Made by a program: the position numbers and the translations under genes
Assembly (NCBI GenBank): GCA_964016885.1
Contig: OZ024760.1
Coordinates: forward strand, 31,372,001 to 31,436,000
Reading direction: 5' to 3'
Length of the DNA stretch: 64,000 nucleotides
Source: Eledone cirrhosa
Lineage: Eukaryota
Shown: positions 15,933 to 47,231 of the stretch, one piece after another
Layout: each line of letters opens with the position of its first letter
How positions within the stretch are numbered: position 1 is the stretch's first letter
The notes under the pieces: model-generated
Databases searched by the model: none
Told to the model about the DNA's origin: nothing
Seen by the model: only the letters and a program-made list of their open reading frames with translations

Positions 15933-16983
15933 GTTAGTGTCATTACTAGCATACACCCTCCCCCCCATAGACCTCATACACACCTCCACCACCACCACAT
16001 ACACACAACCACATAGACCACCACTACCACATACACATCATACACATCCCCATCACCACCACCACCTACACGACAAACATCAAAATATATACTCCAGTCA
16101 CCTTACAGAATGACTATATAACATTTACATTACTCTATATATACTATTATATTTCCACATTAAAGGCTTTACTTCACATAATATCTCACATAACATTTAC
16201 ATTACTCTATATATATTATTGTATTTTCACAGTAAAGGCTTTACCTCACATAATATCTCACATAACATTTACATTACTCTATATATACTATTGTATTTTC
16301 ATAGTAAAGGCTTTACCTCACATAATATCTCACATAACATTTACATTACTCTATATATACTATTGTATTTTCACAGTAAAGGATTTACCTCACATAATAT
16401 CTCACATACCATTTACATTACTCTATATATATATACTATTGTATTTTCACAGTAAAGGCTTTACCTCACATATCTCACATAACATTTACATTACTCTATA
16501 TTTACTATTGTATTTTCACAGTAAAGGATTTACCTCACATAATATCTCACATACCATTTACATTACTCTATATATACTATTGTATTTTCACAGTAAAGTC
16601 TTTACCTCACATAATATCTCACATACCATTTACATTACTCTATATTTACTGTTTTATTTTCACAGTAAAGGCTTTACCTCGATAATATCTCACATAACAT
16701 TTACATTACTCTATATATACTATTGTATTTTCACATTAAAGGCTTTACCTCACATAATATCTCACATAACATCTCGTATACGAGAGACGTGTGTTGACGT
16801 GTGTGAACAAGCTCGGCTACCGAGTCGGATTTACTTACTCAAAAAGTGAGTTTTGATTAATTTTTTTATACTGTAATATACGTTAACCCCTTGCCTTGGT
16901 CGTCAAACTTTGAGTTTATTTATTTTCGCCCCTTTTTGGGGCGAATTTTCCAGTTAAAAATTTATTACGGCAAACTAATAGAA

Positions 16984-18726
16984 ATGGACGGAATTTTCAC
17001 ATCTCATCCTAACGTGAAAGCCACGCCCCCTAAGAAAGGTGATACAGAGAAGCTAGAAGCACAAGGCTCTAAGTCTTCCCTCCTGACTTCTGCAAAAGAA
17101 ACATGGAACACGGAATTAAAAGAAAAATTTGTAAAAATGGGTGAAAACCCAGAAAGTCACATAAACGCAGACAAAAACAACAACGACAATAACAGCAATA
17201 GTCACAACACCAACCAAGGAAAAAATAACGATAACACCAAACAAAGCGAACCCACTACTGGTGCCTCCTTTGCACAGGCGGTCCGGAAAACACAAACCTG
17301 CAAGCAACTGGACATTACAACTCTGAGAGAAAAGATGAAGGAAGCGAAACAGTATGTAACTTTCAAAGAAGGAGGAGACTTCACAATCACCTCCCCACAA
17401 GAAATCAAAAGAGACACGACGCTAAGAACGATATCTTTCAGAACAATTTCCAACATAACAAGGAAACCAACTCAATTATCCCAAAAAGAGATTGAGCTGG
17501 TCCTAAAAAATGTGTGGAGTGATATATCGTTCATACAAAAAGGGCCACTCTATGGGAATATAACGGTCCTAATGAAGGATCAATTGACGGCCAGGAAATA
17601 CTCTGTGGCACCAATTGTTTCCAAGCTACATACATTTTTCCCCACATATTTAGGGAAAAGAACGCAGAAGATAAGGGTCTCCGGAATCCGGCCAAATGCA
17701 TGCATTTTCTGGGTACTAACAGGATTTTTAGAAGACGAGCACGGAATCCTCTCAGTAGGAGAAGTCACCACAGACGTTTTCGGCGGTTTGAGCGTGGAGG
17801 TTCTGGTCCAAATGAGACCAGAACGAATAGCTAGAATACCACAGAGGGTGTCCCTCGATGGAGAAACATTTATATATATTTCAGCCGAGGGTAGGAGGCC
17901 CATATGTTACTACTGTTCAAGCAGGGGTCATCTAAGGGCTGCTTGTCCTCAATTGACAAAAAAAAAGGCTCTTTTGCCTACACCCCACACACCACCACCG
18001 CCACCACCACCACCACCACCACCTCCACCACCACCACCACAACAACAACAAAAACAACAGGGAAAAATAACACAAGACACGGCCCCACCCAAAACAACTC
18101 CCAAAACACACACAAATACAACAAAACCCCAAAATACACCACTACCCGACAGCACGGACGAGGACCCAGCGGAAACGGCACCTAGTGACGAAGAGGGGGA
18201 ACCCTTCCAACCTGTAAAAAGGAAAAAAAGAAAGCACCACTCGAACATAAACGAAACAAACACACAACCACCAACAAAAACAAAACAAACAGAACAAACA
18301 AAATCCGCCCCACCCCAAAACATAACACATACAACAAAACGTAAGCCCACACAAGAACAACAAACAAACACAACACAAATAAAACAGTATACATACATTA
18401 ACACAAATAACAAAGAACTAGTAAAAACAATACACAAAGACCCTTTGGTGGAAACTGAAGGGCAATTCTTTGCAAGCGCGGCCAACAAACCGCATTTAAA
18501 AATGATAAGACTCCCAATGGACACCTATGCAAAACTAAGAGAGAACTTTCCTGAGGACGTGGGGAAAACATGTACTCGACCCTATAACCGCGTCCTCTTG
18601 AAACGTTTCCCCACCCACACCTCACCAAACACCCCCACTCCACCACAGAACAACACCCCACCAAACAACCCCTCCAATACGCCCATGGATATTGTGCAAC
18701 CTGCTCCTCAGGAGCCGAACAGGTAG
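16984..18726 (+). CDS. Tx1 ORF1, gag-like protein with CCHC knuckle
   Basis: CYYCSSRGHLRAAC, poly-Pro, basic NLS-like KRKKRK; first ATG at 16984. Confidence 0.85.
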   Translation: MDGIFTSHPNVKATPPKKGDTEKLEAQGSKSSLLTSAKETWNTELKEKFVKMGENPESHINADKNNNDNNSNSHNTNQGKNNDNTKQSEPTTGASFAQAVRKTQTCKQLDITTLREKMKEAKQYVTFKEGGDFTITSPQEIKRDTTLRTISFRTISNITRKPTQLSQKEIELVLKNVWSDISFIQKGPLYGNITVLMKDQLTARKYSVAPIVSKLHTFFPTYLGKRTQKIRVSGIRPNACIFWVLTGFLEDEHGILSVGEVTTDVFGGLSVEVLVQMRPERIARIPQRVSLDGETFIYISAEGRRPICYYCSSRGHLRAACPQLTKKKALLPTPHTPPPPPPPPPPPPPPPPQQQQKQQGKITQDTAPPKTTPKTHTNTTKPQNTPLPDSTDEDPAETAPSDEEGEPFQPVKRKKRKHHSNINETNTQPPTKTKQTEQTKSAPPQNITHTTKRKPTQEQQTNTTQIKQYTYINTNNKELVKTIHKDPLVETEGQFFASAANKPHLKMIRLPMDTYAKLRENFPEDVGKTCTRPYNRVLLKRFPTHTSPNTPTPPQNNTPPNNPSNTPMDIVQPAPQEPNR

Positions 18727-18747
18727 GTCCTTCCTCTTTTAACCAAC

Positions 18748-21700
18748 ATGGCTGATATAAGAGTTGGGTGTCTGAATGTACGTGGCCTGGGACTGTCTTG
18801 GAAACAAGGCAAACTTTTAAACGATCTCAGGTCGCATAGAATGGATGTAATGGCTATTTGCGAGTCCAGGATCAGCAGCGAGCACCAACTGGCGCCCCTC
18901 TTCGACGACTTTGAGATCTTCGCATCTCTCTGTCAACCGGGGGGTGGGGGTGGAGTTGTCGTTCTGCTGCGAAAACACCTGGGCCTCGCCATACAGAAGG
19001 TGCACCTGGACCCGGAGGGTCGACTGGTGGTTTTAGACGTCGGCAGTAGTGAAAGTGGAGCCCTTAGACTAATAGCTGTGTACGCCCCTTTTTGGGCAGC
19101 GCGGCCGGAATACTTCCAACGTCTGGAAACTTTTCTGGGAACGTCCCGCTCCTTGCTTTTAGTGGGGGACTGGAATGGTATCCTGGATGCACGTTGGGAC
19201 TATGTAGGGGCATGTGCCAATAGAGGGGGGTGTAAAAGCCTCAAAAGGTTAATCGGCCGATTTGACCTGGCCGATAGATATCGACTAGATTTTCCGACTA
19301 CCACTATGGACGTGGACCAATCGCAGTGGAACATCTAGGTCGTACCTAGATAGGGTCCTAGTTAGAGAGAACGATAGGGACACATTTAGCTGTCCAAAAA
19401 TGTTCATGGTTGACTATTCGGATCACAAGTTAGTGACCTGCATAGCCAACCTTGATAGAACCCATAGACAGGGACCCGGTTACTGGAAGCTGAACTTGTC
19501 CTTACCGAGAAGCAAAGCTTACAGTAAACGGATTAGCACGTTAGTTAAGCAGAGTTTGACAGGGGCAATTGTCAACAACAGGTGGTGGAGCTCTCTTAAG
19601 AGAGCAATTAGAATAGAATCGATAGGTTTTAGTCAGGAATTAGCAAGGGATAGGAACAAGACGGAAAGGGAATTAGTAGATAGAGTAGAAGAGGCGATTA
19701 GGAGTGGCAATGTAGCCGGCGTGCTGGCATCAAGAATGGCCTTAGACCAGTTCTTTGAGGTGAAGCATGAAGGCTGCGTTGTCAGGAGTAAAATACGTGC
19801 TCTGGGTAATGAGGGAGCCAAAGCTGTGAGCTGGGCCCGAGTGACAGAGGCAAAAAGTGGGAACAAGTCCACGATTCGGTCTTTGAAGGACCAGGATGGG
19901 CGTGTGATCCTTGAACCTGGGCAGATGTGTGCGGCCTTTCAGCGGCACTTTGCACGACTGTTCGAGAGGGGCGGCGCGCCGGGTGAGACTATGGATTTCA
20001 ATCCATACCTCGACGGTCTGCCGCGCCTCTCGGACGCGGAGGCGAAGTCCTGCGAAAGGACGATTTCAGCTGCTGAGATAGGGGCGGCGCTGAGCCAATG
20101 CGGCAAACGCAAATCCCCGGGTCTCGATGGTCTACCATACGAGCTATATGTAGCGATGCCGGACTTGTTCTCCGATATCCTCGAAGCGGTCTACTGCAAC
20201 TGGCAGCAGAACGGGAGAATTCCCAGTTCTGTGACCAAGGGCGTAGTTACGCTGGTGAGGAAGGATGAGAACAAGAGGGATGACATAAGTAACTTTAGGC
20301 CCATAACTCTGCTAAATACAGAGTTAAAGATTTTGGCCAAGGTGTTAGCGAAGAGGTTGGCGCTTGTCGTTGGAAACCTGGTGGGAGAAGCGCAGACATG
20401 CGCAATCCCGTCCAGGTCCATTCACGACAATCTCCACCTTATGCGATACATCATAGAGAGGGTAGGGAATGAACCCGGCTTTGGTGGGGCCCTGATCAAC
20501 TTGGATCAATCTAAAGCTTTCGATAGGGTTGACCATCGTTACCTGGATGCGGTGCTCGCGGCGGCAGGCTTCGGACCCGTTTTCAGGGGTTGGATTGCTG
20601 CGATGCACAGCAGCAACGTCTGCTCAAGGGTCAAGGTGAACGGCCACCTCTCGGAGCCGTTCCAAATCATGCGATCCATCCGACAGGGATGCCCTCTCTC
20701 CTCCCTACTGTATGTGCTGGCTCTTGAGCCACTACTGCGGAAGTTGGAGCGGTTGCAGGGCATCCCTTTGGAACCGGGATTGCAGAAAGCGGCGTCGGCC
20801 TACGCCGATGACGTGACAGTAATGGTGTCGAAAACCTCGCAAATCGGTGAGATCGGCACCTTACTGGAGGAATATGAAAGGTTTACAGGAGCCAAGCTGA
20901 ACCGGGACAAGTCCGTCGGTTTGCAACTCGGAACATGGAGAGGCAAACCGATGCCCTCCAACGACGTCGTCGGACGCTGGACGGAGGGCCCGGTGAAGCT
21001 GCTTGGGGTCTGGTTCGGACCAGACCTCCAGGTGGAGAAAAACTGGAACGAGGTAACGGCCAGGGTGTTTGCACTCACCCAGAAGTGGGCCCAGTGCAAA
21101 CTATCCCTGAAAGGTCGAGCGGAGGTGGCGAATACTTATATAGCATCCGTCATCTACTACCGCTTGACCGTCGTGCCTTGCCCAGTGAAAAGACTCGCCA
21201 AAATGGAGTGCGCGCTGTTCCAATTTCTTTGGAACAAGCGGACCCCTTTGGTGAGGAGATCCATCTGCTGTCAACACCCTTCGAAAGGAGGGCTGGGGAT
21301 GCCGTGGCTACAGATGCGTAAACACGCATTAAGGCTACGGCACCTCCAGGTATTCCTCACCGGTCAACCGGTGTGGGCCCCGTTTGTGAGGCGAGCCTTT
21401 CCCAGACTCGTCTCGCTCACCGAGCTGCAATCCTGGGTCAAGCAAAGACCGAGAAAAGTGGGCGACTGGCACATTGAATGTGCCCAGGCGCTCACGGCCC
21501 TCTGGAAAGCGGACCCGGCAATCAGTGGAGACTCCACATCGACATTCTATAGAGGGTTGGTACGCAGCAGGTGCGACGATGCTCTCGGAGAAGCTCTAGG
21601 CATGGAGGAAGATGAACTGGCCAGTCTGTTCGGTAGGACGTTTGGCCCTGGACCGATGGACAACTTCCAAAAGTCCCTGGCTTGGCAGTGCTACCGAGGG

Positions 21701-22183
21701 GCTCTACCCGTTCGAGACAAGCTCCACAGGCATGGGAGCCTGGGTAGAGATCCTTTGAATAAGATCTGTCCGAGATGCGTGCATGATGACGAAACCGTTG
21801 CGCACGCATTCGTACACTGCCCAGGCATTGCTGACCTGTGGGGCTATGTGGAACGACTACTGTCGAGGGTGGGACCAATCCGGTTGACCACCGAGTCCAT
21901 TGTCACGATCAAACCGCCTCCCCCTTTCAAAAACGAAGGAGAGGCGGTTTTTCTCTGTGTGGTAGCCATGGCTAAAGAAGTTGTATGGTGGACGAGGCTG
22001 AAAGGGCTGAGGTCAGACACCTTTCTCTCCGGCCAACAACTGGTCCCCTTTTTCAAATACCATTTTAAAAGAAGGATCAGAATGGAGAGAGAGGTGCTCT
22101 ACCCCAGCAAGTTTTATGAAAGGTGGGTGAAAGTAGGGAGAATGGCCAGAGTGAATGGGTCATCTCTCTATATCAGCCTGTAG
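18748..22183 (+). pseudogene. Tx1 ORF2 (APE endonuclease-RT-Zn finger), frameshifted
   Basis: 2-bp deletion near 19299 (ccgacTGTacc to ccgacTacc) relative to copy B splits the ORF. Confidence 0.88.
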
Positions 22184-24422
22184 GTGAAAGAAGAGGAAAA
22201 AGAGGAGACGAGGGAAGCACCTACTCTTTGTGCTCCTGAGGAGAAGGGTTACACATTTTTTCCGGGGTGTGTGCGACCCATGTTAATGCCCCCTCCCTAT
22301 TGAGGACTTCGTTTGTTGTTGTTATTTCATTGTTATATTTTTGTACTCGTTAATTATATGTAAACTTCCCCCCTTGTATCTGTCCCTACCTTTTGTGCCC
22401 TAGTGGCAAATAAAGAAACCACTCTATATATACTATTGTATTTTCACATTAAAGGCTTTACCTCACATAATATCTCACATAACATTTACATTACTCTATA
22501 TATACTATTGTATTTTCACAGTAAAGGCTTTACCTCACATATCTCACATAACATTTACATTACTCTATATTTACTATTGTATTTTCACAGTAAAGGATTT
22601 ACCTCACATAATATCTCACATACCATTTACATTACTCTATATATACTATTGTATTTTCACAGTAAAGTCTTTACCTCACATAATATCTCACATACCATTT
22701 ACATTACTCTATATTTACTGTTTTATTTTCACAGTAAAGGCTTTACCTCGATAATATCTCACATAACATTTACATTACTCTATATATACTATTGTATTTT
22801 CACATTAAAGGCTTTACCTCACATAATATCTGACCTAACATTTACATTACTCTATATATACTATTGTATTTTCACATTAAAGGCTTTACCTCACATAATA
22901 TCTCACATAACATTTACATTACTCTATATATACTATTGTATTTTCACATTAAAGGCTTTACCTCACATAATATCTCACATAACATTTACATTACTCTATA
23001 TTTACTATTGTATTTTCACAGTAAAGGATTTACCTCACATAATATCTCACATAATATGTACATTACTCTATATATACTATTGTATTTTCACAATAAAGGC
23101 TTTACCTCACATAATATCTCACATAATATTTACATTACTCTATATTTACTATTGTATTTTCACAGTAAAGCCTTTACCTCACATAATATCTCACATACCA
23201 TTTACATTACTCTATATTTACTGTTTTATTTTCACAGTAAAGGCTTTACCTCGATAATATCTCACATAACATTTACATTACTCTATATATACTATTGTAT
23301 TTTCACATTAAAGGCTTTACCTCACATAATATCTCACATAACATTTACATTACTCTATATATACTATTGTATTCTCATGGTAAAGGCTTTACTTCACATA
23401 ATATCTCACATAACATTTACATTACTTTATATATACTATTGTATTTTCACAGTAAAGGCTTTACCTCACATAATATTTACATTACTCTATATATACTATT
23501 GTATTTTCTCATTAAAGGCTTTACCTCACATAATATCTCACATAACATTTATATTACTTTATATATACTATTGTATTTTCACAGTAAAGGCTTTACCTCA
23601 CATAATATTTACATTACTCTATAAATATACTATTGTATTTTCACGTTAAAGGCTTTACTTCACGTAATATCTGACCTAACATTTACATTACTCTATATAT
23701 ACTATTGTATTCTCATGGTAAAGGCTACTTCACATAATATCTCGCATACCATTTATATTACTCTATATATACTATTGTATTTGACAGTAAAGGCTTTATC
23801 TCAAATAATATCTCACATACCATTTACATTACTCTATATTTACTATTGTTTTCACAGTAAAGGCTTTACCTCACATAATATCTCACATAACATTTACATT
23901 ACTCTATATTTACTATTGTATTTTCACAATAAAGGCTTTACCTCACATAATATCTCACATACTATTTATATTACTCTATATATACTATTGTATTTTCACA
24001 GTAAAGACTTTACCTCACATAATATGTGACATAACATTTACATTACTCTATATATACTATTGTATTGTCATGGTAAAGACTTTACTTCACATAATATCTC
24101 CCATACCATTTACATTACTCTATATATACTATTGTTTTTTCACAGTAAAGGCTTTACCTCACATAATATCTCACATAACATTTACATTACTCTATATATA
24201 CTATTGTATTTTCACAGTAAAGGCTTTACCTCATATAATTATCTCATATAATATCGAATATACGAGATTTATTTTAAGAACAATATCTTAACAACAGTAT
24301 GAACGGCCGAATACGGCCAGTTTGAACAGAAAGAGGTGAGAGAATTCTGGCTGGATATAGCCAGTTTAAATGCTAAAGGGTTATACCAATTTAAATTTCA
24401 TAATGTCTATTTTCTGTTTTAG

Positions 24423-25167
24423 TTGAGACTGAAAAATTTGAAGATCTGGAACTTGACAAATCTGACAAATACTGTAGCTTGGATGGTAATGTCAATGAGA
24501 AAAACAGCAAGGATCTATTAAACAAACAGTTTTATAAAGACCCCACTGAATCTACATCATCAAAAGACCCCACTGAATCTACATCAACAAAAGCCCCCCC
24601 TAAATCTACATCAACAACAGCCCCCCCTAAATCTACATCAACAAGAGACAGCCCTAAATCTACACCTACAACAGACCCCCCTAAATCTACACCAACAACA
24701 GACCCCCCTAAATCTACAAAAGGCCCCCCAACAACAGACCCCCCTCAATCTACATCAACTGACAATTCAAAGAGTCTCAATTTCTGCCCAGAAGAGAAAA
24801 CTACAACAGAAGCAGCAGGAAAAATCAAGAAACGAAAGCATCGAAAGAAAAATTCTATAAGGCCAATTATTGAACCAGAAAAGTATGAAGAAATACCCCC
24901 AAAATGCGCTGTTAAACCTCCACAGCCAGACATTTCTAAACATGAGAAACAGGTGGAAGAGGTCAAATTTGATGTTGAATCTTTGGAAAGCAGAATGAAA
25001 GCCAACATAGAATCATTGGCTGAGTATAAATTTGAAGAAACAGATTCCATTTTTGAAAGGGTTGAAAGGGAAAATTCTTCTGAAACAATTTCTAATCCTT
25101 GTAAAAAGATTGACAGATGTGTAGACTTTAATCCTGATGTAATCAAAGACTGCGAAATTTCAGAAGC

Positions 25168-25205
<38 letters not shown>

Positions 25206-25478
25206 AGGCTGCTGCTGATGCCGATGGTGAAGATTTGTTTGAAAATTTGGTTTGGAAAATAGTATGTACGCAAGATGTTTGGAATACATTGAAGAGCAGA
25301 GACTTGACCACTGAAATACGCAGACAAGCTATTTCAGCAATCAGAAAGCTAGCTTCTGGATATAAGACAAGATATGTGAGAAAACTGAAGGATATCCCCA
25401 ACAGTTTGAAATTGTACACAATTCGTCTGTCACCACATTCACGCATCATCTGGCAAATAGCCATATATTATATTCCAG
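24423..25478 (+). CDS. TRANK1-like gene, large exon (Pro/Thr repeats, acidic tract, WKIVCT...RIIWQI region)
   Basis: ctgttttAG acceptor, G/GTAAGA donor; 345-aa ORF; C-terminal part resembles the TRANK1 segment upstream of the helicase. Confidence 0.8.
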
Positions 25479-25735
25479 GTAAGAATATGCACAGTATACG
25501 TTTTTCTTCTCATTAAAATATATTGGTCTGGCAAACCAAAGATGTGGGCTCATGTCCCATGTATGTCAAAACTCATCCTTTTTTCCATTCAGAGGGTTTT
25601 TAAAATCCCAACTAAGCAGACTAATTCTATTTAGTCAAGTGTGGTGTAGGCACAGGTAACTAACTAATTTTCAAATTCGCTAGCTGTTTGTAAACAAAGC
25701 CTGCTTTGTCTCTCCCTGTTTATATATATATACAT

Positions 25736-25779
<44 letters not shown>

Positions 25780-25838
25780 TGTTATACTTTGGGAAGGTTA
25801 TGCTGCCAATAAATTTATATATATATATATATATATAG

Positions 25839-26374
25839 ATATATCAACTAGAAATTGATTGACATATATATATATCTAAAATAAACATATGAAACAATCA
25901 CAGGGAATAATTTGTAAAAGTGTGTAATCACACATAGCTATGTAGGTAACTAATTAAAGTTTAACTAAAACTTCAAAAATAGATACCTTATAAATTGATT
26001 AATCTTCCTTGTATATATTTCATTAAAGAAATATATTTCACTATCAATCGATCGGTAAATCACAGTAGCCAAATCCCGGATTTTCAACAAGGGAGAAGAT
26101 CTAAATATCTGTGTTTACACAGCAAATTCAAATCTGCGAATGACTAGCAACACGTGTTGCATTTTTTTAAAATACACACATCGTACCAGCTTCATCCCAG
26201 GGGCGGAATAGGGTTATTGACAACTAGAAATAGCAGCCGAGTCCTTTCAACTGAGTTAGCTCTACAATTAAGGGGCCGTATATATATATATCCAAAATTA
26301 AATTATTCCCTGTGATTGTTTCATATGTTTATTTTAGATATATATATATATGTCAATCAACTTCTAGTTGATAT
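25839..26374. repeat. Inverted repeat pair of about 73 bp with about 390 bp spacer, plus tail hairpin
   Basis: tatatcaactagaa...cagggaataattt (25839-25912) mirrors 26300-26374; followed by ATGCTC...GAGCAT. Confidence 0.7.
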
Positions 26375-26605
26375 AAAATGCTCGGATCTATTCATTGGAA
26401 TCTTGGAGCATATTCTACGGTGGATATGGCGAATGTCTCTCCGACATGACACCCTTAATTTAATTTTGGATATATATATATATATATTATCAACCTCGTC
26501 CTCCTCCTCCTCTCATATCCTTCATTCACTTTTGTTACCTTAATCTATATTTACAGCCTCCAAGATATACTGAAGAAAATATTTTTCATTTTTCTTGTTT
26601 TATAG

Positions 26606-27196: not shown

Positions 27197-27336
27197 GTAA
27201 GGCATTTTATTTAAAATCAAAATAATTTTTGAATTCATTCATTTTAATAAGTAGAGTGTGGTGTTTTAAGTTAACCTGTTAGCATTTACATTACTCTATA
27301 TTTACTATTGTATTTTCACAATAAAGGCTTTACCTT

Positions 27337-33900: not shown

Positions 33901-33927
33901 ATTCTCAAATAATTTGGATACTTTTAA

Positions 33928-34130: not shown

Positions 34131-34220
34131 ACTATATTTCTTATGAATAAATGCTGCCCATGTTTCTGTGTATTCACAATAGTAGAGTAGCTACCATATT
34201 TTATTTTCCTCTTCCATCAG

Positions 34221-34831: not shown

Positions 34832-34869
34832 GTCTGTAAATTGTAATTTATCTTATAGTATTTCATTCC

Positions 34870-34967
<98 letters not shown>

Positions 34968-34968
<1 letters not shown>

Positions 34969-37225
34969 ATCATCATCATCACCGTTTTACGTCCGTTCTT
35001 CCACGCTAGCATGGGTTAAACGGGTTGTCCTGTTATGGGCAGTGTCCGGTCAGCTGACCTTGTCTTGCTCATACGGGAACTGATTCTGGCTTGATTTCTA
35101 CAGCTGGATGCCCTTCCTAACACCAACCTCATTTACAGTGAGTGATGGGTGCTTGTTTTTCCGTGTCGCCTACACGTATCCACCACTTCTATAGCACTCA
35201 CCTGCATTTGAAAAATGTGTCTATCAATGTAACTTCTACTGTCTAATTTCCCTGTACATCTACTGCATACGTATTTCTCCCTACCTGTTAGTTTGCCTGC
35301 TATCCCGCTACATCTCTTGTGTACCCAGGATCTGCATTGTGTGCATTTTATAGAATTTATGCCAGTTCCTTTTCTGCATATCGAACATGGCCATTTCCCT
35401 GATGGAATCAGAGTTTTGTCCTCTTTTCTACTCATCAACACTTTTGTCTTAGCTAGGTTCACTCTCAGTCCTCTTGCTTCCAACTGCTGTTTCCACAGCC
35501 AGAATTTATTCTCTAGCTCCTCTACTGATTCTGCTATAAGAACCAGATCATCAGCATAGAGAAGTTCCCATGGACAGCCAGTCTTAAACTTCCCTGTTAT
35601 GGCTTGGAGGACTATAATGAACAAGAGCAGGCTGAGGACAGAACCTTGATGTACTCCTACTTGTATCTGGAATTCCTCACTAAACTCCATTCCTACCCTG
35701 ACTTTACTGACAGTACCTCTGTACAAAGTTTGCACTGTCCTCACAAGCCATTCCTCAATACCTAGTTTCCTTAGGGACCACCAGATGACAGATCGGGGTA
35801 CCCTATCAAAGGCCTTCTCTAGGTCAACAAAGGCTAAGTATAGTGGCTTATTTTTCTCTAAGAACCTCTCTTGTAATTGTCTCACCAAGAAGAGGGCATC
35901 TGTTGTACTTTTCCCAGGCACAAAACCAAACTGCATCTCATCTAGTTTGACCCTTTCTCTAATTAGTTGTGCTAATATCCTTTCTGCCACTTTCATAACC
36001 TGATCCATGAGTTTTATACCCCTATAATTGCTCCTCTCCAGAGCATCCCCTTTACCTTTGTAGGAATTTATGAGAATACTGCTGCATCAGTCTTTGGGTA
36101 TGACACCACCATATATAGCCTGATTGATGATGCATATAACCAGTTTAGTGCCTACTTCCCCTGATGCCTTCAGTATCTCAGCAACTATCCCCGATGGTCC
36201 AGCAGCCTTACCAGTTTTCATTTCCCTAATCGCCTCTTGGACCCTATATTTGTCAATCTCAATAGCTGGTCCCTCTGTCGGATCTACTGAGGGTAATTTA
36301 TCTCTCTCCCATTCGTTCTCCACATTCATCAGTCTCTCATAATGACATTTCCAGGCCTCCTTTTTCTGATCATTCGTGACACTAAGTACACTGGCATCAT
36401 TCCGGACACATTTATCTCCAACAACATCCTGATTTGCATTGACACACTGCCTTGCAATGTGGAACACCGCACGCCTCTGATCTTCCCGTTGCAGAACATT
36501 GCCTCCCTGTGTGCTAAGTACACCTGACGTCTAGCTTCTCTCTTAGTGGCTGTATATCCTTCCCTACTCCCACCCTTTTTCTAAGCCTTCCATGCTAGTC
36601 TTTTGTCTCTAATGGCCTTATCTACTGTGTTGTTCCACCACCAGGTCACTCTTTGTCTGTGGGGTACATTCTTCCCCAGGGTATGCCTTGGTATTAGACA
36701 CTATCTGCCTGTCCCGCTGCCTAACTAGTAAGAAGTCAATCTGGCTTATGTGCTCACCAGATTTGTAGGTTATTAGGTGGTTGGCAGGTTTCTGGAAGTT
36801 AGTGTTGCAAATAGTCAGTGTACTTGCATCACTAAATTCAAGAAGTCTCACTCCTTTATTTCTTGCGCCGTAACCGTGCCCACCATGTACTCCAGTGTAA
36901 CCATCCTGGAGCTGTCGGACATGACCATTGAAGTCTCCTGCTAGCATAACGATGTCTCCGTCCTCTGTCATTGCGGTTGTTTGTAAAAGTTGCTCGTAAA
37001 AGCAGTCTTTCTCATCTTTGCCTAGGCCTGCTTGGGGAGCATAGGCAGAGATGATTGTCAGTAGTCTCCTGCCTACAACTAACCTAAGCTTAATTATTTG
37101 ATTACTAACTCGAACTACCTCTATTGTCTTATTGATCCATCTCTCAGCCAGGAAAATGCCTACTCCCCCTAACTCATCATCCTTACCTACCCAGAAAAGC
37201 TTATAGCTAAGATGTTTGCCTACGA
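34968..37225 (-). mobile_element. RTE-clade LINE, internally deleted (APE part + RT)
   Basis: ORFs 36618-37283 (SAYAPQ, GDFNGH, SQIDF) and 35133-36008 (LYADD, Cys cluster); (GAT)n tail. Confidence 0.88.
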
Positions 37226-37716
37226 CTATATATACATATATATATATATTAGTAATAATAAAAATGTGAAGACTAAAATCCAAAGAGGGCTCGATAAGGA
37301 TAAATATATATCAAATATATAAGAACCCTAGAGTAAATATTTATTAATATAACATTAAAGTTTAAGCAAAGAATCGCTACTTTCAGAAGATCCCGTTAAG
37401 GGTGAAAGCAGCGATTCTTTGCTTAAACTTTAATCTGTTATTTTAATCAATATATATATATAGTACGGTAAAGTCTGAGGCGCAGATCGATACTGGAGTC
37501 GGGTCAACAACTCCTATGGGTCACTTTGAGCCAAACCTCTGTGAAACACGCATAACGGGTCGTTACGCAATATAGATATTTGATATGTAAACGAAACTTC
37601 CTCGTTTTTCTATTATATATATATATATAAATAATATATATATTATTAGTACAAATAATATATGGCTCTCTCTCTCCCTCTCCCTCTCTCTACTATATCT
37701 TTTAATTGGAATTATT

Positions 37717-37770
<54 letters not shown>

Positions 37771-37882
37771 TATATAATTTGTTAAGTGTAAAATGATATG
37801 AGAGATAATAAGAGTTTGTGACCCAAGAATCACAACTCTTGACATTTTGAAATATCTTTTTCTGTTTTAATTTCATCTGTAG

Positions 37883-38310
37883 GTCTATGAAGCATTCATG
37901 AAATACAACAAAATACTAAGCGAAAAAGGTTTGTTTGATGAGATGGATGTTGTCTGTAATTTATTCAACCGACTTCGTAATTCTAGAACAAACCTCTGCC
38001 CCATCCACGAGATTTACGTTGATGAAGTCCAGGACTTTACCCAAGCTGAATTATTTCTGATGATAATTCTAGTTGAGAATCCCAACAACATGTTTCTCAC
38101 AGGTGACACAGCCCAAAGTATCATGAGAGGAGTTGCTTTTCGATTTTGTGACCTCAAGTCTCTGTTTTTTTACTTAAAAGAGATTTATTCAAATTTCAAA
38201 CAACTCAACAAGATAAACGTACCCAAAAAAATGCATTACCTGACCTGTAACTACAGGTCACACAGCGGAGTCGTTTCACTTGCATCCTCTGTCTTGGATT
38301 TACTTAACAG
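37883..38310 (+). CDS. TRANK1: TRANK1-like helicase exon, Walker B and motifs III/IV
   Basis: YVDEVQDFTQAEL, LTGDTAQSIMRGVAFRF, LTCNYRSHSG; ctgtAG acceptor, AG/GTAACT donor. Confidence 0.9.
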
Positions 38311-39939
38311 GTAACTTGTTTTTCCTTTTCTTTCTGTTGTTAATATTATTTGAAATTCCTTCTTTCCCAAATCTTACCGAGTGTCAACCTGACACCTGAG
38401 TCAATATTTGATAATACACACATTTTACAATCAATTGTCACATAAATCATGTCACAAGAGCTCAGAGCAACAGTAAATGTCTTAGCAAGGTGTTTAACTC
38501 TTTAGCAGTCCCATTACTCTATATATACTATTGTATTTTCACAGTAAAGTCTTTACCTCACATAATATCTCACATAACATTTACATTACTCTATATATAC
38601 TATTGTATTTTCACAGTAAAGTCTTTACCTCACATAATATTTCACATAACATTTACATTACTCTATATATACTATTGTATTGTCACAGTAAAGGCTTTAC
38701 CTCACATAATATCTCACATAACATTTATATTACTCTATATATACTATTGTATTTTCACAGTAAAGGCTTTACCTCACATAATATCTCACATAACATTTAT
38801 ATTACTCTATATATACTATTGTATTTTCACAGTAAAGGCTTTACCTCACATAATATTTCACATAACATTTATATTACTCTATATATACTATTGTATTTTC
38901 ACAGTAAAGACTTTACCTCACATAATACCTCACATAACATTTACATTACTCTATATATACTATGTATTTTCACAGTAAAGACTTTACCTCACATAATATC
39001 TCGCATAACATTTATATTACTCTATATATACTATTGTATTTTCACAGTAAAGGCTTTACCTCACATAATATTTCACATAACATTTACATTACTCTATATA
39101 TACTATTGTATTTTCACAGTAAAGACTTTACCTCACATAATACCTCACATAACATTTACATTACTCTATATATACTATGTATTTTCACAGTAAAGACTTT
39201 ACCTCACATAATATCTCACATAACATTTACATTACTCTATATATACTATTGTATTTTCACAGTAAAGGCTTTACCTCACATAATATCTCACAAAACATTT
39301 ACATTACTCTATATTTACTATTGTATTTTCACAGTAAAGGCTTTACCTCACATAATACCTCACATAACATTTACATTACTCTATATATACTATGTATTTT
39401 CACAGTAAAGGCTTTACCTCACATAATATCTCACATAACATTTACATTACTCTATATATACTATTGTATTTTCACAGTAAAGGCTTTACCTCACATAATA
39501 TCTCACATAACATTTACATTACTCTATATATACTATTGTATTTTCACAGTAAAGGCTTTACTTCACATAATATCTCACATAACATTTACATTACTCTATA
39601 TATACTATTGTATTTTCACAGTAAAGGCTTTACCTCACACAATATCTCACATAACATTTACATTACTCTATATATACTATGTATTTTCACAGTAAAGACT
39701 TTACCTCACATAATATCTCACATAACATCTCGTATACGAGAGACGTGTGTTGACGTGTGTGAACAAGCTCGGCTACCGAGTCGGATTTACTTACTCAAAA
39801 AGTGAGTTTTGATTAATTTTTTTATACTGTAATATACGTTAACCCCTTGCCTTGGTCGTCAAACTTTGAGTTTATTTATTTTCGCCCCTTTTTGGGGCGA
39901 ATTTTCCAGTTAAAAATTTATTACGACAAACTAATAGAA

Positions 39940-41682
39940 ATGGACGGAATTTTCACATCTCATCCTAACGTGAAAGCCACGCCCCCTAAGAAAGGTGATA
40001 CAGAGAAGCTAGAAGCACAAGGCTCTAAGTCTTCCCTCCTGACTTCTGCAAAAGAAACATGGAACACGGAATTAAAAGAAAAATTTGAAAAAATGGGTGA
40101 AAACCCAGAAAGTCACATAAACGCAGACAAAAACAACAACGACAATAACAGCAATAGTCACAACACCAACCAAGGAAAAAATAACGATAACACCAAACAA
40201 AGCGAACCCACTACTGGTACCTCCTTTGCACAGGCGGTCCGGAAAACACAAACCTGCAAGCAACTGGACATTACAACTCTGAGAGAAAAGATGAAGGAAG
40301 CGAAACAGTATGTAACTTTCAAAGAAGGAGGAGACTTCACAATCACCTCCCCACAAGAAATCAAAAGAGACACGACGCTAAGAACGATATCTTTCAGAAC
40401 AATTTCCAACATAACAAGGAAACCAACTCAATTATCCCAAAAAGAGATTGAGCTGGTCCTAAAAAATGTGTGGAGTGATATATCGTTCATACAAAAAGGG
40501 CCACTCTATGGGAATATAACGGTCCTAATGAAGGATCAATTGACGGCCAGGAAATACTCTGTGGCACCAATTGTTTCCAAGCTACATACATTTTTCCCCA
40601 CATATTTAGGGAAAAGAACGCAGAAGATAAGGGTCTCCGGAATCCGGCCAAATGCATGCATTTCCTGGGTACTAACAGGGTTTTTAGAAGACGAGGACGG
40701 AATCCTCTCAGTAGGAGAAGTCACCACAGACGTTTTCGGCGGTTTGAGCGTGGAGGTTCTGGTCCAAATGAGACCAGAACGAATCGCTAGAATACCACAG
40801 AGGGTGTCCCTCGATGGAGAAACATTTATATATATTTCAGCCGAGGGTAGGAGGCCCATATGTTACTACTGTTCAAGCAGGGGTCATCTAAGGGCTGCTT
40901 GTCCTCAATTGACAAAAAAAAAGGCTCTTTTGCCTACACCCCACACACCACCACCGCCACCACCACCACCACCACCACCTCCACCACCACCACCACAACA
41001 ACAACAAAAGCAACAGGGAAAAATAACACAAGACACGGCCCCACCCAAAACAACTCCCAAAACACACACAAATACAACAAAACCCCAAAATACACCACTA
41101 CCCGACAGCACGGACGAGGACCCAGCGGAAACGGCACCTAGTGACGAAGAGGGGGAACCCTTCCAACCTGTAAAAAGGAAAAAAAGAAAGCACCACTCGA
41201 ACATAAACGAAACAAACACACAACCACCAACAAAAACAAAACAAACAGAACAAACAAAATCCGCCCCACCCCAAAACATAACACATACAACAAAACGTAA
41301 GCACACACAAGAACAACAAACAAACACAACACAAATAAAACAGTATACATACATTAACACAAATAACAAAGAACTAGTAAAAACAATACACAAAGACCCT
41401 TTGGTGGAAACTGAAGGACAATTCTTTGCAAGCGCGGCCAACAAACCGCATTTAAAAATGATAAGACTCCCAATGGACACCTATGCAAAACTAAGAGAGA
41501 ACTTTCCTGAGGACGTGGGGAAAACATGTACTCGACCCTATAACCGCGTCCTCTTGAAACGTTTCCCCACCCACACCTCACCAAACACCCCCACTCCACC
41601 ACAGAACAACACCCCACCAAACAACCCCTCCAATACGCCCATGGATATTGTGCAACCTGCTCCTCAGGAGCCGAACAGGTAG
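39940..41682 (+). CDS. Tx1 ORF1 with CCHC knuckle
   Basis: As copy A with a few substitutions. Confidence 0.85.
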   Translation: MDGIFTSHPNVKATPPKKGDTEKLEAQGSKSSLLTSAKETWNTELKEKFEKMGENPESHINADKNNNDNNSNSHNTNQGKNNDNTKQSEPTTGTSFAQAVRKTQTCKQLDITTLREKMKEAKQYVTFKEGGDFTITSPQEIKRDTTLRTISFRTISNITRKPTQLSQKEIELVLKNVWSDISFIQKGPLYGNITVLMKDQLTARKYSVAPIVSKLHTFFPTYLGKRTQKIRVSGIRPNACISWVLTGFLEDEDGILSVGEVTTDVFGGLSVEVLVQMRPERIARIPQRVSLDGETFIYISAEGRRPICYYCSSRGHLRAACPQLTKKKALLPTPHTPPPPPPPPPPPPPPPPQQQQKQQGKITQDTAPPKTTPKTHTNTTKPQNTPLPDSTDEDPAETAPSDEEGEPFQPVKRKKRKHHSNINETNTQPPTKTKQTEQTKSAPPQNITHTTKRKHTQEQQTNTTQIKQYTYINTNNKELVKTIHKDPLVETEGQFFASAANKPHLKMIRLPMDTYAKLRENFPEDVGKTCTRPYNRVLLKRFPTHTSPNTPTPPQNNTPPNNPSNTPMDIVQPAPQEPNR

Positions 41683-41703
41683 GTCCTTCCTCTTTTAACC
41701 AAC

Positions 41704-44700
41704 ATGGCTGATATAAGAGTTGGGTGTCTGAATGTACGTGGCCTGGGACTGTCTTGGAAACAAGGCAAACTTTTAAACGATCTCAGGTCGCATAGAATGG
41801 ATGTAATGGCTATTTGCGAGTCCAGGATCAGCAGCGAGCACCAACTGGCGCCCCTCTTCGACGACTTTGAGATCTTCGCATCTCTCTGTCAACCGGGGGG
41901 TGGGGGTGGAGTTGTCGTTCTGCTGCGAAAACACCTGGGCCTCGCCATACAGAAGGTGCACCTGGACCCGGAGGGTCGACTGGTGGTTTTAGACGTCGGC
42001 AGTAGTGAAAGTGGAGCCCTTAGACTAATAGCTGTGTACGCCCCTTTTTGGGCAGCGCGGCCGGAATACTTCCAACGTCTGGAAACTTTTCTGGGAACGT
42101 CCCGCTCCTTGCTTTTAGTGGGGGACTGGAATGGTATCCTGGATGCACGTTGGGACTATGTAGGGGCATGTGCCAATAGAGGGGGGTGTAAAAGCCTCAA
42201 AAGGTTAATCGGCCGATTTGACCTGGCCGATAGATATCGACTAGATTTTCCGACTGTACCACTATGGACGTGGACCAATCGCAGTGGAACATCTAGGTCG
42301 TACCTAGATAGGGTCCTAGTTAGAGAGAACGATAGGGACACATTTAGCTGTCCAAAAATGTTCATGGTTGACTATTCGGATCACAAGTTAGTGACCTGCA
42401 TAGCCAACCTTGATAGAACCCATAGACAGGGACCCGGTTACTGGAAGCTGAACTTGTCCTTACCGAGAAGCAAAGCTTACAGTAAACGGATTAGCACGTT
42501 AGTTAAGCAGAGTTTGACAGGGGCAATTGTCAACAACAGGTGGTGGAGCTCTCTTAAGAGAGCAATTAGAATAGAATCGATAGGTTTTAGTCAGGAATTA
42601 GCAAGGGATAGGAACAAGACGGAAAGGGAATTAGTAGATAGAGTAGAAGAGGCGATTAGGAGTGGCAATGTAGCCGGCGTGCTGGCATCAAGAATGGCCT
42701 TAGACCAGTTCTTTGAGGTGAAGCATGAAGGCTGCGTTGTCAGGAGTAAAATACGTGCTCTGGGTAATGAGGGAGCCAAAGCTGTAAGCTGGGCCCGAGT
42801 GACAGAGGCAAAAAGTGGGAACAAGTCCACGATTCGGTCTTTGAAGGACCAGGATGGGCGTGTGATCCTTGAACCTGGGCAGATGTGTGCGGCCTTTCAG
42901 CGGCACTTTGCACGACTGTTCGAGAGGAGCGGCGCGCCGGGTGAGACTATGGATTTCAATCCATACCTCGACGGTCTGCCGCGCCTCTCGGACGCGGAGG
43001 CGAAGTCCTGCGAAAGGACGATTTCAGCTGCTGAGATAGGGGCGGCGCTGAGCCAATGCGGCAAACGCAAATCCCCGGGTCTCGATGGTCTACCATACGA
43101 GCTATATGTAGCGATGCCGGACTTGTTCTCCGATATCCTCGAAGCGGTCTACTGCAACTGGCAGCAGAACGGGAGAATTCCCAGTTCTGTGACCAAGGGC
43201 GTAGTTACGCTGGTGAGGAAGGATGAGAACAAGGGGGATGACATAAGTAACTTCAGGCCCATAACTCTGCTAAATACAGAGTTAAAGATTTTGGCCAAGG
43301 TGTTAGCGAAGAGGTTGGCGCTTGTCGTTGGAAACCTGGTGGGAGAAGCGCAGACATGCGCAATCCCGTCCAGGTCCATTCACGACAATCTCCACCTTAT
43401 GCGATACATCATAGAGAGGGTAGGGAATGAACCCGGCTTTGGTGGGGCCCTGATCAACTTGGATCAATCTAAAGCTTTCGATAGGGTTGACCATCGTTAC
43501 CTGGATGCGGTGCTCGCGGCGGCAGGCTTCGGACCCGTTTTCAGGGGTTGGATTGCTGCGATGCACAGCAGCAACGTCTGCTCAAGGGTCAAGGTGAACG
43601 GCCACCTCTCGGAGCCGTTCCAAATCATGCGATCCATCCGACAGGGATGCCCTCTCTCCTCCCTACTGTATGTGCTGGCTCTTGAGCCACTACTGCGGAA
43701 GTTGGAGCGGTTGCAGGGCATCCCTTTGGAACCGGGATTGCAGAAAGCGGCGTCGGCCTACGCCGATGACGTGACAGTAATGGTGTCGAAAACCTCGCAA
43801 ATCGGTGAGATCGGCACCTTACTGGAGGAATATGAAAGGTTTACAGGAGCCAAGCTGAACCGGGACAAGTCCGTCGGTTTGCAACTCGGAACATGGAGAG
43901 GCAAACCGATGCCCTCCAACGACGTCGTCGGACGCTGGACGGAGGGCCCGGTGAAGCTGCTTGGGGTCTGGTTCGGACCAGACCTCCAGGTGGAGAAAAA
44001 CTGGAACGAGGTAACGGCCAGGGTGTTTGCACTCACCCAGAAGTGGGCCCAGTGCAAACTATCCCTGAAAGGTCGAGCGGAGGTGGCGAATACTTATATA
44101 GCATCCGTCATCTACTACCGCTTGACCGTCGTGCCTTGCCCAGTGAAAAGACTCGCCAAAATGGAGTGCGCGCTGTTCCAATTTCTTTGGAACAAGCGGA
44201 CCCCTTTGGTGAGGAGATCCATCTGCTGTCAACACCCTTCGAAAGGAGGGCTGGGGATGCCGTGGCTACAGATGCGTAAACACGCATTAAGGCTACGGCA
44301 CCTCCAGGTATTCCTCACCGGTCAACCGGTGTGGGCCCCGTTTGTGAGGCGAGCCTTTCCCAGACTCGTCTCGCTCACCGAGCTGCAATCCTGGGTCAAG
44401 CAAAGACCGAGAAAAGTGGGCGACTGGCACATTGAATGTGCCCAGGCGCTCACGGCCCTCTGGAAAGCGGACCCGGCAATCAGTGGAGACTCCACCTCGA
44501 CATTCTATAGAGGGTTGGTACGCAGCAGGTGCGACGATGCTCTCGGAGAAGCTCTAGGCATGGAGGAAGATGAACTGGCCAGTCTGTTCGGTAGGACGTT
44601 TGGCCCTGGACCGATGGACAACTTCCAAAAGTCCCTGGCTTGGCAGTGCTACCGAGGGGCTCTACCCGTTCGAGACAAGCTCCACAGGCATGGGAGCCTG

Positions 44701-45141
44701 GGTAGAGATCCTTTGAATAAGATCTGTCCGAGATGCGTGCATGATGACGAAACCGTTGCGCACGCATTCGTACACTGCCCAGGCATTGCTGACCTGTGGG
44801 GCTATGTGGAACGACTACTGTCGAGGGTGGGACCAATCCGGTTGACCACCGAGTCCATTGTCACGATCAAACCGCCTCCCCCTTTCAAAAACGAAGGAGA
44901 GGCGGTTTTTCTCTGTGTGGTAGCCATGGCTAAAGAAGTTGTATGGTGGACGAGGCTGAAAGGGCTGAGGTCAGACACCTTTCTCTCCGGCCAACAACTG
45001 GTCCCCTTTTTCAAATACCATTTTAAAAGAAGGATCAGAATGGAGAGAGAGGTGCTCTACCCCAGCAAGTTTTATGAAAGGTGGGTGAAAGTAGGGAGAA
45101 TGGCCAGAGTGAATGGGTCTTCTCTCTATATCAGCCTGTAG
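41704..45141 (+). CDS. Tx1 ORF2, 1145 aa: APE endonuclease, reverse transcriptase, C-terminal Zn finger
   Basis: LNVRGL, GDWN, SYLD, SDH; SPGLDG, RPITLLN, DQSKAFDRVDH, RQGCPLS, YADD; CPRC...HAFVHC. Confidence 0.95.
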   Translation: MADIRVGCLNVRGLGLSWKQGKLLNDLRSHRMDVMAICESRISSEHQLAPLFDDFEIFASLCQPGGGGGVVVLLRKHLGLAIQKVHLDPEGRLVVLDVGSSESGALRLIAVYAPFWAARPEYFQRLETFLGTSRSLLLVGDWNGILDARWDYVGACANRGGCKSLKRLIGRFDLADRYRLDFPTVPLWTWTNRSGTSRSYLDRVLVRENDRDTFSCPKMFMVDYSDHKLVTCIANLDRTHRQGPGYWKLNLSLPRSKAYSKRISTLVKQSLTGAIVNNRWWSSLKRAIRIESIGFSQELARDRNKTERELVDRVEEAIRSGNVAGVLASRMALDQFFEVKHEGCVVRSKIRALGNEGAKAVSWARVTEAKSGNKSTIRSLKDQDGRVILEPGQMCAAFQRHFARLFERSGAPGETMDFNPYLDGLPRLSDAEAKSCERTISAAEIGAALSQCGKRKSPGLDGLPYELYVAMPDLFSDILEAVYCNWQQNGRIPSSVTKGVVTLVRKDENKGDDISNFRPITLLNTELKILAKVLAKRLALVVGNLVGEAQTCAIPSRSIHDNLHLMRYIIERVGNEPGFGGALINLDQSKAFDRVDHRYLDAVLAAAGFGPVFRGWIAAMHSSNVCSRVKVNGHLSEPFQIMRSIRQGCPLSSLLYVLALEPLLRKLERLQGIPLEPGLQKAASAYADDVTVMVSKTSQIGEIGTLLEEYERFTGAKLNRDKSVGLQLGTWRGKPMPSNDVVGRWTEGPVKLLGVWFGPDLQVEKNWNEVTARVFALTQKWAQCKLSLKGRAEVANTYIASVIYYRLTVVPCPVKRLAKMECALFQFLWNKRTPLVRRSICCQHPSKGGLGMPWLQMRKHALRLRHLQVFLTGQPVWAPFVRRAFPRLVSLTELQSWVKQRPRKVGDWHIECAQALTALWKADPAISGDSTSTFYRGLVRSRCDDALGEALGMEEDELASLFGRTFGPGPMDNFQKSLAWQCYRGALPVRDKLHRHGSLGRDPLNKICPRCVHDDETVAHAFVHCPGIADLWGYVERLLSRVGPIRLTTESIVTIKPPPPFKNEGEAVFLCVVAMAKEVVWWTRLKGLRSDTFLSGQQLVPFFKYHFKRRIRMEREVLYPSKFYERWVKVGRMARVNGSSLYISL

Positions 45142-47231
45142 GTGAAAGAAGAGGAAAAAGAGGAGACGAGGGAAGCACCTACTCTTTGTGCTCCTGAGGA
45201 GAAGGGTTACACATTTTTTCCGGGGTGTGTGCGACCCATGTTAATGCCCCCTCCCTATTGAGGACTTCGTTTGTTGTTGTTATTTCATTGTTATATTTTT
45301 GTACTCGTTAATTATATGTAAACTTCCCCCCTTGTATCTGTCCCTACCTTTTGTGCCCTAGTGGCAAATAAAGAAACCACTCTATATATACTATTGTATT
45401 TTCACAGTAAAGGCTTTACCTCACATAATATCTCACAAAACATTTACATTACTCTATATTTACTATTGTATTTTCACAGTAAAGGCTTTACCTCACATAA
45501 TACCTCACATAACATTTACATTACTCTATATATACTATGTATTTTCACAGTAAAGGCTTTACCTCACATAATATCTCACATAACATTTACATTACTCTAT
45601 ATATACTATTGTATTTTCACAGTAAAGGCTTTACCTCACATAATATCTCACATAACATTTACAATACTCTATATATACTATTGTATTTTCACAGTAAAGG
45701 CTTTACCTCACATAATATCTCACATAACATTTACATTACTCTATATATACTATTGTATTTTCACAGTAAAGGCTTTACCTCACATAATATCTCACATAAC
45801 ATTTACATTACTCTATATTTACTATTGTATTTTCACAGTAAAGGCTTTACCTCACATAATACCTCACATAACATTTACATTACTCTATATATACTATGTA
45901 TTTTCACAGTAAAGGCTTTACCTCACATAATATCTCACATAACATTTACATTACTCTATATATACTATTGTATTTTCACAGTAAAGGCTTTACCTCACAT
46001 AATATCTCACATAACATTTACATTACTCTATATATACTATTGTATTTTCACAGTAAAGTCTTTACCTCACATAATATCTCACATAACATTTACATTACTC
46101 TATATATACTATTGTATTTTCACAGTAAAGGCTTTACCTCACATAATATCTCACATAACATTTACATTACTCTATATATACTATTGTATTTTCACAGTAA
46201 AGGCTTTACCTCACATAATATCTCACATAACATTTACATTACTCTATATATACTATTGTATTTTCACAGTAAAGTCTTTACCTCACATAATATCTCACAT
46301 AACATTTACATTACTCTATATATACTATTGTATTTTCACAGTAAAGGCTTTACCTCACATAATATCTCACATAACATTTACATTACTCTATATATACTAT
46401 TGTATTTTCACAGTAAAGTCTTTACCTCACATAATATCTCACATAACATTTACATTACTCTATATATACTATTGTATTTTCACAGTAAAGGCTTTACCTC
46501 ACATAATATCTCACATAACATTTACATTACTCTATATATACTATTGTATTTTCACAGTAAAGTCTTTACCTCACATAATATCTCACATAACATTTACATT
46601 ACTCTATATATACTATTGTATTTTCACAGTAAAGGCTTTACCTCACATAATATCTCACATAACATTTACATTACTCTATATATACTATTGTATTTTCACA
46701 GTAAAGTCTTTACCTCACATAATATCTCACATAACATTTACATTACTCTATATATACTATTGTATTTTCACAGTAAAGGCTTTACCTCACATAATATCTC
46801 ACATAACATTTACATTACTCTATATATACTATGTATTTTCACAGTAAAGGCTTTACCTCACATATCTCTATTGATATCAAATCTATGAGATTTTGATATT
46901 ATTTATTTTGAGAACAATACCTTAACATTAGTATGAGTGGCCAGTCACAGCTGGTTTGAATAGAAAGAGGTGAGAGAGCTCTGGCCGGATACGGCCGATT
47001 GAAATGGAAAAGGGTTAAATTGACTCCCCATTTACACACTCACGTTACACACATTACAGACTCATGTTATACACTCACGTTACACACACACATTACACAT
47101 GTTATACAAACATGTTACACACACACACTTTACACACTCATGTCACACCTACGTCACACCCACGTCACACATATCCACATTGTTGTGTTCTGCTTCTCAA
47201 TTTCTCTTGTTGATTGCTGTTCTTCTTGCAG

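Follow-up and report, generated by a model that had tools for sequence, protein, structure and literature searches.

Two LINE copies in one gene

The window analysed here is a stretch of 64,000 nucleotides from Eledone cirrhosa (GenBank assembly GCA_964016885.1, contig OZ024760.1, forward-strand positions 31,372,001 to 31,436,000), in which two copies, A and B, of a long interspersed nuclear element (LINE) lie on the same strand in different introns of one gene with a UvrD-type helicase exon, each within a tandem array of 72-bp units. The copies, together with the open reading frames (ORFs) of copy B, the second of which encodes an apurinic/apyrimidinic-type endonuclease (APE), are located as follows.

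16773..22420, + strand: LINE copy A, 5,648 bp; ORF2 frameshifted by a 2-bp deletion within the APE domain
39729..45378, + strand: LINE copy B, 5,650 bp; ORF1 and ORF2 intact
39940..41682, + strand: ORF1 of copy B, 580 aa, with a single CCHC zinc knuckle at aa 308-321
41704..45141, + strand: ORF2 of copy B, 1,145 aa, with APE endonuclease, reverse transcriptase and zf-RVT
45367..45372, + strand: AATAAA of copy B, 6 bases 5′ of the 3′ junction, with no poly(A) tail after it

A preliminary description of the window had noted two copies of about 5.65 kb that differ by scattered substitutions and a 2-bp deletion, share orientation and junctions but lie in different introns, and include an intact, endonuclease-encoding copy B; all of this is borne out, the junctions being as it quoted them. 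We count 16 substitutions between A and B (99.7% identity, 23 kb apart), and the single 2-bp deletion, in A, shifts the ORF2 frame near codon 187, inside the endonuclease domain. ORF2 of copy B matches Pfam Exo_endo_phos, RVT_1, and zf-RVT, and keeps the catalytic motifs NVRG, E39, GDWN, SDH, and YADD; its closest relative of solved structure is human L1 ORF2p (E 3e-53; R2, E 3e-23), and its closest named homologue is a protein of Argonauta hians (68% over the reverse transcriptase region). The ORF1 knuckle has the pattern CX2CX4HX4C, a match to Pfam zf-CCHC below the curated cut-off (E 0.004) and to the zf-CCHC clusters of the Atlas at 0.93. A CCHC knuckle in ORF1 is a feature of the Tx1 clade; among the homologues listed for the LINE proteins, none is named Tx1. 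Judged by its sequence, the LINE family is an APE-type non-long-terminal-repeat retrotransposon of the L1 group, and within that group it probably belongs to the Tx1 clade.

The 5′ untranslated region of copy B contains a poly-T run (39813-39824) whose length varies among copies, preceded by a GTGAGT motif resembling a splice donor; no spliced form was found among the 40 commonest forms of this region. One RNA run contained only short diverged pieces of the LINE, and offers no evidence on expression.

The 72-bp repeat belongs to a piggyBac-type MITE

The arrays around both copies, and an empty relative between them, are resolved into the following parts of a miniature inverted-repeat transposable element (MITE) with terminal inverted repeats (TIRs).

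16118..16772, + strand: 72-bp array upstream of A, about 9 units; MITE left end not found
22421..24384, + strand: array downstream of A, about 26 units, and MITE right end
38494..39728, + strand: MITE left end (TTAA and degenerate TIR) and array upstream of B, 17 units
45379..47018, + strand: array downstream of B, about 21 units, and MITE right end with TTAA
32985..33510, + strand: empty copy of the host MITE, 5 units, without the LINE

The repeat and the exact base of insertion had been correctly recognised in the preliminary description, which called the repeat a satellite; that part has to be amended, for the arrays close in a common stretch of about 130 bp ending with a short TIR and TTAA, and the host element has the TTAA target duplication and the short TIRs starting CCC that mark piggyBac-type elements. 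The 72-bp repeat lies inside an old MITE of the TTAA piggyBac type. This MITE is about 225 bp in size, with at most one unit in 8 of the 9 sampled copies that have both ends in reach (12 loci); in part of the copies the 72-bp segment has expanded into an array. A 28-mer from the MITE right end has 8,428 exact matches in the genome, a number inflated by a tandem array, and the empty 37-bp target site has 25,543.

The uninterrupted unit reads ...CATAACAT TTACATT ACTCTAT..., and the 7 bp TTACATT are absent at the insertion sites of both A and B. The shared junction base had been identified before; the 7-bp loss, the MITE context, and the target-derived leader described below had been missed.

Two further observations concern the MITE. 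A defective piggyBac-type element at 4028-5144 carries a PF13843 transposase fragment on the minus strand, with a 12-bp match to the host MITE terminus (TIR) some 420 bp away, and a second tandem array, with a period of 44 bp, has formed from the MITE right end elsewhere in the genome (contig C1, 11.995-12.008 Mb).

One base of the unit is the usual target throughout the genome

The genome holds about 300 copies of the young LINE family. Its 3′ end has 260 matches, of which 252 continue with ACTCTATAT and hence join the same base of the unit (97% single-base specificity); of the 8 exceptions, the 3 examined are all variant units of the 72-bp repeat. The 3′ ends of an older subfamily join at the target base in 30 of 30 cases examined (of 68), as do 7/7 truncated or inverted copies. 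The earlier proposal of a target-specific family is therefore upheld well beyond the window.

The 75 3′ ends on the first-listed contigs comprise 69 with a 5′ head and 6 that are 5′-truncated. Six of the seven truncated or inverted copies (the inverted one taken from a different list than the six truncated ones) retain the 7 bp and show apparent target duplications, of 2, 6, 9, 10, 15, and 16 bp, in five truncated copies and the inverted one, and full-length copies share the uniform 7-bp target deletion. The constant 3′ end, the 5′ truncation and inversion, and the target duplications are the marks of retrotransposition.

Most copies on the largest contigs are found no more than about 30 Mb from an end, and small contigs are densely occupied. 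Clusters of up to six copies per array occur at C1:4.22-4.26 Mb, C10:40.72-40.75 Mb, and C10:41.38-41.43 Mb, and in them three adjoining pairs are spaced by exactly 65 bp (one unit minus 7). At two places 40 kb apart (L108:799-1574 and the flank upstream of L146; C1, about 11.0 Mb) what by eye resembles a Gypsy 3′ end and long terminal repeat is joined to the LINE's initial 150 nt, the fusion ending at the target base; perhaps a deletion produced it, or it represents a small non-autonomous family.

Full-length insertions overwrite upstream target bases

The segments to which this section leads are, in the two window copies:

16748..16772, + strand: leader of copy A, 25 nt, target-derived, unit positions 41-65, probably brought by the element, by analogy with 91 copies
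39704..39728, + strand: leader of copy B, 25 nt, probably target-derived, with predicted pairing to the element's first ~35 nt

We compared the unit at the 5′ junction with other units in 89 of 92 full-length copies, leaving out 3 in which the unit start was not located. Positions 43-65 are perfect in 86/89 junction units, as against 317/631 ordinary units and 44/85 first downstream units; a control segment of the same length, positions 13-35, is perfect in 42/89 junction units and 298/631 ordinary ones. Position 41 has the consensus base in 89/89 junction units and positions 35-36 vary at the normal rate, which places the start of the tract at 37 to 41 and gives it a length of 25-29 nt. Of 91 junctions, 83 show a perfect 25-mer when 42 would be expected from the make-up of each array, and the control segment is perfect at 39/86 when 36.8 would be expected. 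Where at most 15% of an array's units are perfect, the junction 25-mer is perfect in 10/10 cases and the control segment in 1/9; four arrays have no perfect unit whatever (0/26, 0/29, 0/47, 0/23), and the junction unit is perfect nonetheless. Two of these four consist of 60-bp units, and only the junction unit has the extra 12 bp. Genome-wide, 251/284 LINE heads are preceded by a perfect 23-mer. Positions 1-36 of the upstream unit, and the downstream unit, remain local at the junctions.

Overwriting of the target by upstream bases carried with the element is thus observed at the DNA level. Since the 25 junction bases are consensus even in arrays without any consensus unit, the element likely carries a target-derived leader, and its functional 5′ end is then likely to be found no less than 25 bp upstream of the one drawn above, at 16748 in A and 39704 in B; bases brought in on the 5′ side only fit a cDNA end that anneals to the upstream unit. 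The truncated copy L097 adjoins the MITE left end directly, and the leader region is therefore unnecessary for nicking.

The leader is predicted to fold onto the element's first 35 nt (z -2.5). This pairing may have a function or simply reflect an ancient fold-back; on the more speculative reading of the target shift given below, it could be part of an undescribed 5′-end processing structure. A long hairpin is predicted at the 5′ end, where Rfam gave two chance-level matches only (E above 3) and no known self-cleaving ribozyme, no descriptor search having been made.

A 65-bp duplication in place of the 7-bp deletion was considered and rejected: positions 1-42 match in 17/85 junction-downstream pairs compared with 150/555 pairs of neighbours, and the higher-order order of units continues across B.

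A proposed insertion mechanism

We think it quite probable that these copies form a young site-specific LINE family that inserts by target-primed reverse transcription, with a leader of 25-29 nt that anneals to the target at full-length insertion. In the proposed sequence of events, i) the APE domain of ORF2 would nick the bottom strand at, or a few bases from, TT^ACTC; ii) reverse transcription would start at one base of the 72-bp unit, on an RNA whose 3′ end probably includes a few bases of downstream target, given AATAAA 6 nt before the junction and the succession TT>TC>CC with subfamily age; iii) in truncated events the top strand would be nicked 2-16 bp downstream; iv) in full-length events the target-derived leader would anneal to the upstream unit, overwriting local variants and propagating the fixed 7-bp deletion; and v) the heteroduplex of cDNA and target would prime the second strand. 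The leader would stem from a transcription start in the upstream unit; we prefer this to a read-through RNA that cleaves itself, given that Rfam recognised no known ribozyme. As to the 3′ end, copies whose last two bases are TT, TC, and CC have median divergences of 1.6%, 1.2%, and 0.3%; these two bases are likely captured target on the RNA, because TT is the target's own sequence.

Several observations weigh against this mechanism. The 7-bp-deletion junction is present in L095, a truncated copy that would be expected to lack a leader; perhaps a full-length copy lost an internal part there, or the top strand can be cut at -7. L117 retains the local short unit at its junction; 8/116 sampled junctions differ from the consensus, as do 33/284 heads genome-wide that have no perfect 23-mer; and the TT, TC, and CC endings are not strictly bound to clades on the copy tree. 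The first-listed contigs and exact-motif matches supplied the 92 full-length copies, a choice biased towards young ones. Junctions with a duplication followed by the leader (the "ISR" class of R1A) numbered 0, compared with 283 in a positive control, and no displaced leader was found at a non-homologous site in searches that gave 11 + 2 matches, all ordinary arrays except L134. L122 and L134 had been candidates for a displaced leader marking the RNA start, and were rejected: another LINE is inserted there, and the array resumes upstream of it.

The same junctions could in principle be made with no leader at all, by a protein that makes its top-strand cut 7 bp upstream and has a preference for units of consensus sequence upstream of the nick, the clean 25-mer then reflecting target choice. 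The -7 junction of L095 speaks for this, and a -9 top-strand cut has been proposed for melanogaster R1A, though alongside a leader (PMC2718515). Preference among units, however, could hardly yield a perfect junction unit in the four arrays that have none to choose, nor a 12-bp block that is missing from the rest of two all-60-bp arrays, and 6/7 truncated or inverted copies retain the 7 bp and carry duplications. We consider the absence of a leader improbable; a -7 cut may be part of the mechanism, yet is insufficient alone for the overwriting.

Copies were inserted independently

Leader-assisted retrotransposition has also to be distinguished from spread at the DNA level, in which a few retrotransposed founders would have been multiplied by gene conversion or break repair between arrays, in the manner of homing. 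The high proportion of 3′ ends on copies with a 5′ head (69/75) and the uniform junction would suit such a process, and some adjoining tandem copies that share flanks are probably local duplications (e.g. L139/L140). The co-conversion, on the other hand, is one-sided and limited to 25-29 bp, positions 1-36 and the downstream unit being left local; the copy tree is ladder-like; and ORF2 changes common to at least 4 copies comprise 28 replacement and 30 silent ones, as against 734 and 313 among singletons, a ratio that indicates purifying selection on shared changes. Spread at the DNA level is in our judgement a poor prospect as the general explanation. Both ORFs are intact in 22/92 copies, and the family may be active at present.

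The MITE right end lies within reach for 41/92 full-length copies, and in the resulting 820 pairs the median difference is 15.5% for MITE right ends and 1.3% for ORF2 (about 12-fold); among 68 pairs whose LINEs are less than 0.3% apart, the closest host MITEs still differ by 7.6%, and MITE and LINE distances show no positive correlation. Because the MITE copies differ by 15% and the LINEs by 1.3%, the LINE was not carried inside the MITE. A composite of MITE and LINE mobilised by a piggyBac transposase after one insertion event, a question similar to one raised for SINEU-3 in Mariner-N4 (PMC4494074), would account for the location of all examined copies within the MITE repeat. This divergence refutes it for the 41 copies, and the 0 to 25 units that flank the LINE on either side across copies, together with truncated copies that have junctions of their own, make it very unlikely in general. 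What the preliminary description named as grounds for its own refutation does not apply: the flanks of the LINEs are not random, the repeat variants around them differ between copies, and the MITEs are far older than the LINEs.

Local segmental duplication or an assembly error in the window, suggested by the 99.7% identity of A and B at a distance of 23 kb, can be dismissed, since 260 copies are dispersed through the genome, independent public runs contain the LINE (one contig spanning the 3′ junction), the flanks of A and B outside both host MITEs have no plus-strand similarity, their host MITE ends align at only ~77%, and the two copies are placed in different parts of the copy tree. The preliminary argument from differing flanking variants and unduplicated exons is likewise sustained: the arrays around A and around B carry different local unit variants, and 0/7 exon stretches tested are duplicated.

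A sister family in a microsatellite

The window also holds an older relative of the LINE.

58712..62068, + strand: older sister LINE, 5′-truncated, inside an (ATCT)n microsatellite; 77% nucleotide identity to B

A 19-bp tandem array (62184-64000) directly follows the microsatellite of this sister LINE. The sister family ends in repeats of (ATCT)n/(AT)n type, ATCTAT or ATATAT following the 3′ end in 26/29 relatives, and its APE hairpin loop hardly differs from that of B. Several of the 13 sister heads recovered open, by eye, with degenerate ATCT-like bases; the heads are of several distinct types genome-wide, often in tandem, and a pseudoknot that the young LINE family would share with them was rejected as inconsistent by eye. 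GACG stands exactly 15 nt before GTAAG in 10/13 sister heads, a spacing that differs in the young LINE family; were GACG a motif like the downstream promoter element that fixes the start site by a +28 rule, the leader would be 15 nt long, shorter than the 25 seen.

A probably recent shift of target, within one genome, from the microsatellite to the look-alike core of the MITE is the simplest history, the direction being read from copy ages and not rooted. Whether the target moved from loose (ATCT)n to one MITE base mainly by RNA-DNA pairing, with the endonuclease little changed, is a more speculative matter. The near-identical hairpin loop, the register kept to the shared TCTAT core, and the probable captured target at both RNA ends point that way, and we put the idea forward as a doubtful one. 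If it were true, a changed leader and tail might re-aim or sharpen an L1-group element.

Relation to known systems

Xenopus Tx1L makes a long target duplication, unlike the young LINE family, which makes a 7-bp deletion; the two differ also in host, target sequence, and hairpin loop (aligned to the Tx1L loop grafted in 2v0r, the LTx chimera). Tx1L and the crocodilian Tx1-Mar and Tx1-9_AMi resemble the present family in being APE-type LINEs aimed at a non-autonomous DNA transposon: Tx1D, the Tx1L target, is described as a non-autonomous piggyBac family (PMC4494074), and site-specific nicking is reported for the Tx1L endonuclease (PMC1950540). Other Tx1 targets include satellites and microsatellites (PMC4494074), and Tx1 families targeting DNA transposons, satellites, and microsatellites have been described (PMC4494074, PMC6719617, PMC1950540; in part). 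The Kibi and Koshi families of Tx1 target microsatellites, as the sister family does, whereas the young LINE family targets a single base of a 72-bp unit. A target-derived leader, which the present LINE family likely has, is not mentioned for Tx1L in the portions of these sources that we consulted.

For the 5′ end the closer parallels lie in ribosomal DNA (rDNA). Full-length copies of melanogaster-type R1A have a precise 9-bp target deletion, truncated ones have duplications, and the RNA is proposed to include 6-27 nt of upstream target (PMC2718515). The young LINE family, also an APE element, shows the same contrast of precise deletion and duplication between these two classes of copy; it is unlike R1A (R1 clade, 28S rDNA, ISR junctions) in its non-rDNA target and in that no ISR junctions were found. 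Because the target units vary, overwriting can be counted site by site here. In R2 elements that cleave themselves upstream in 28S rRNA, the RNA retains as many as 36 nt of upstream target, 28 being the commonest number, which leads to uniform 5′ junctions, and springtail R2 propagates a uniform 7-bp deletion (PMC3774820). R2 differs in its restriction-like endonuclease, ribozyme of hepatitis delta virus type, and co-transcription with rRNA, in place of the APE found here and of a 5′ end in which Rfam recognised no ribozyme.

By analogy, then, target choice would be like that of Tx1L and 5′ joining like that of R1A and R2, a combination found in no paper searched. No account of this LINE family, or of a Tx1 element with a leader, emerged from the literature searched; the family may already be catalogued. 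In a 2026 annotation of O. vulgaris the recently active L1-Tx1 families number 13, and neither "target" nor "satellite" appears in its main text (PMC13282606). Of the steps in target-primed reverse transcription, 5′-end joining is the least settled, and the heteroduplex model has so far been based on rDNA elements with nearly uniform targets; about 90 natural insertions now show the replacement of 25-29 bp of upstream target and nothing else, which would make an L1/Tx1-group element whose target is not rDNA a further user of the leader strategy. A young, mostly full-length family with 97% single-base specificity should also be useful for studies of APE targeting.

Other features of the window

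The host gene of A and B extends from 15885 to 55720 (+ strand), with its UvrD-type helicase exon at 37883-38311, and is presumably a TRANK1 relative; a 27-bp coding repeat lies within it at 24536-24718. Further decayed elements occur at 10144-14355, 30246-31772, 35133-37310, 50228-54532, and 56723-57580, and we take them to be RTE-like LINEs with a PHD finger, a Gypsy pol fragment, and a Tc1/mariner-like transposase. They include an inverted pair of copies, presumably Penelope-like, that are 98% identical over 1.2 kb.

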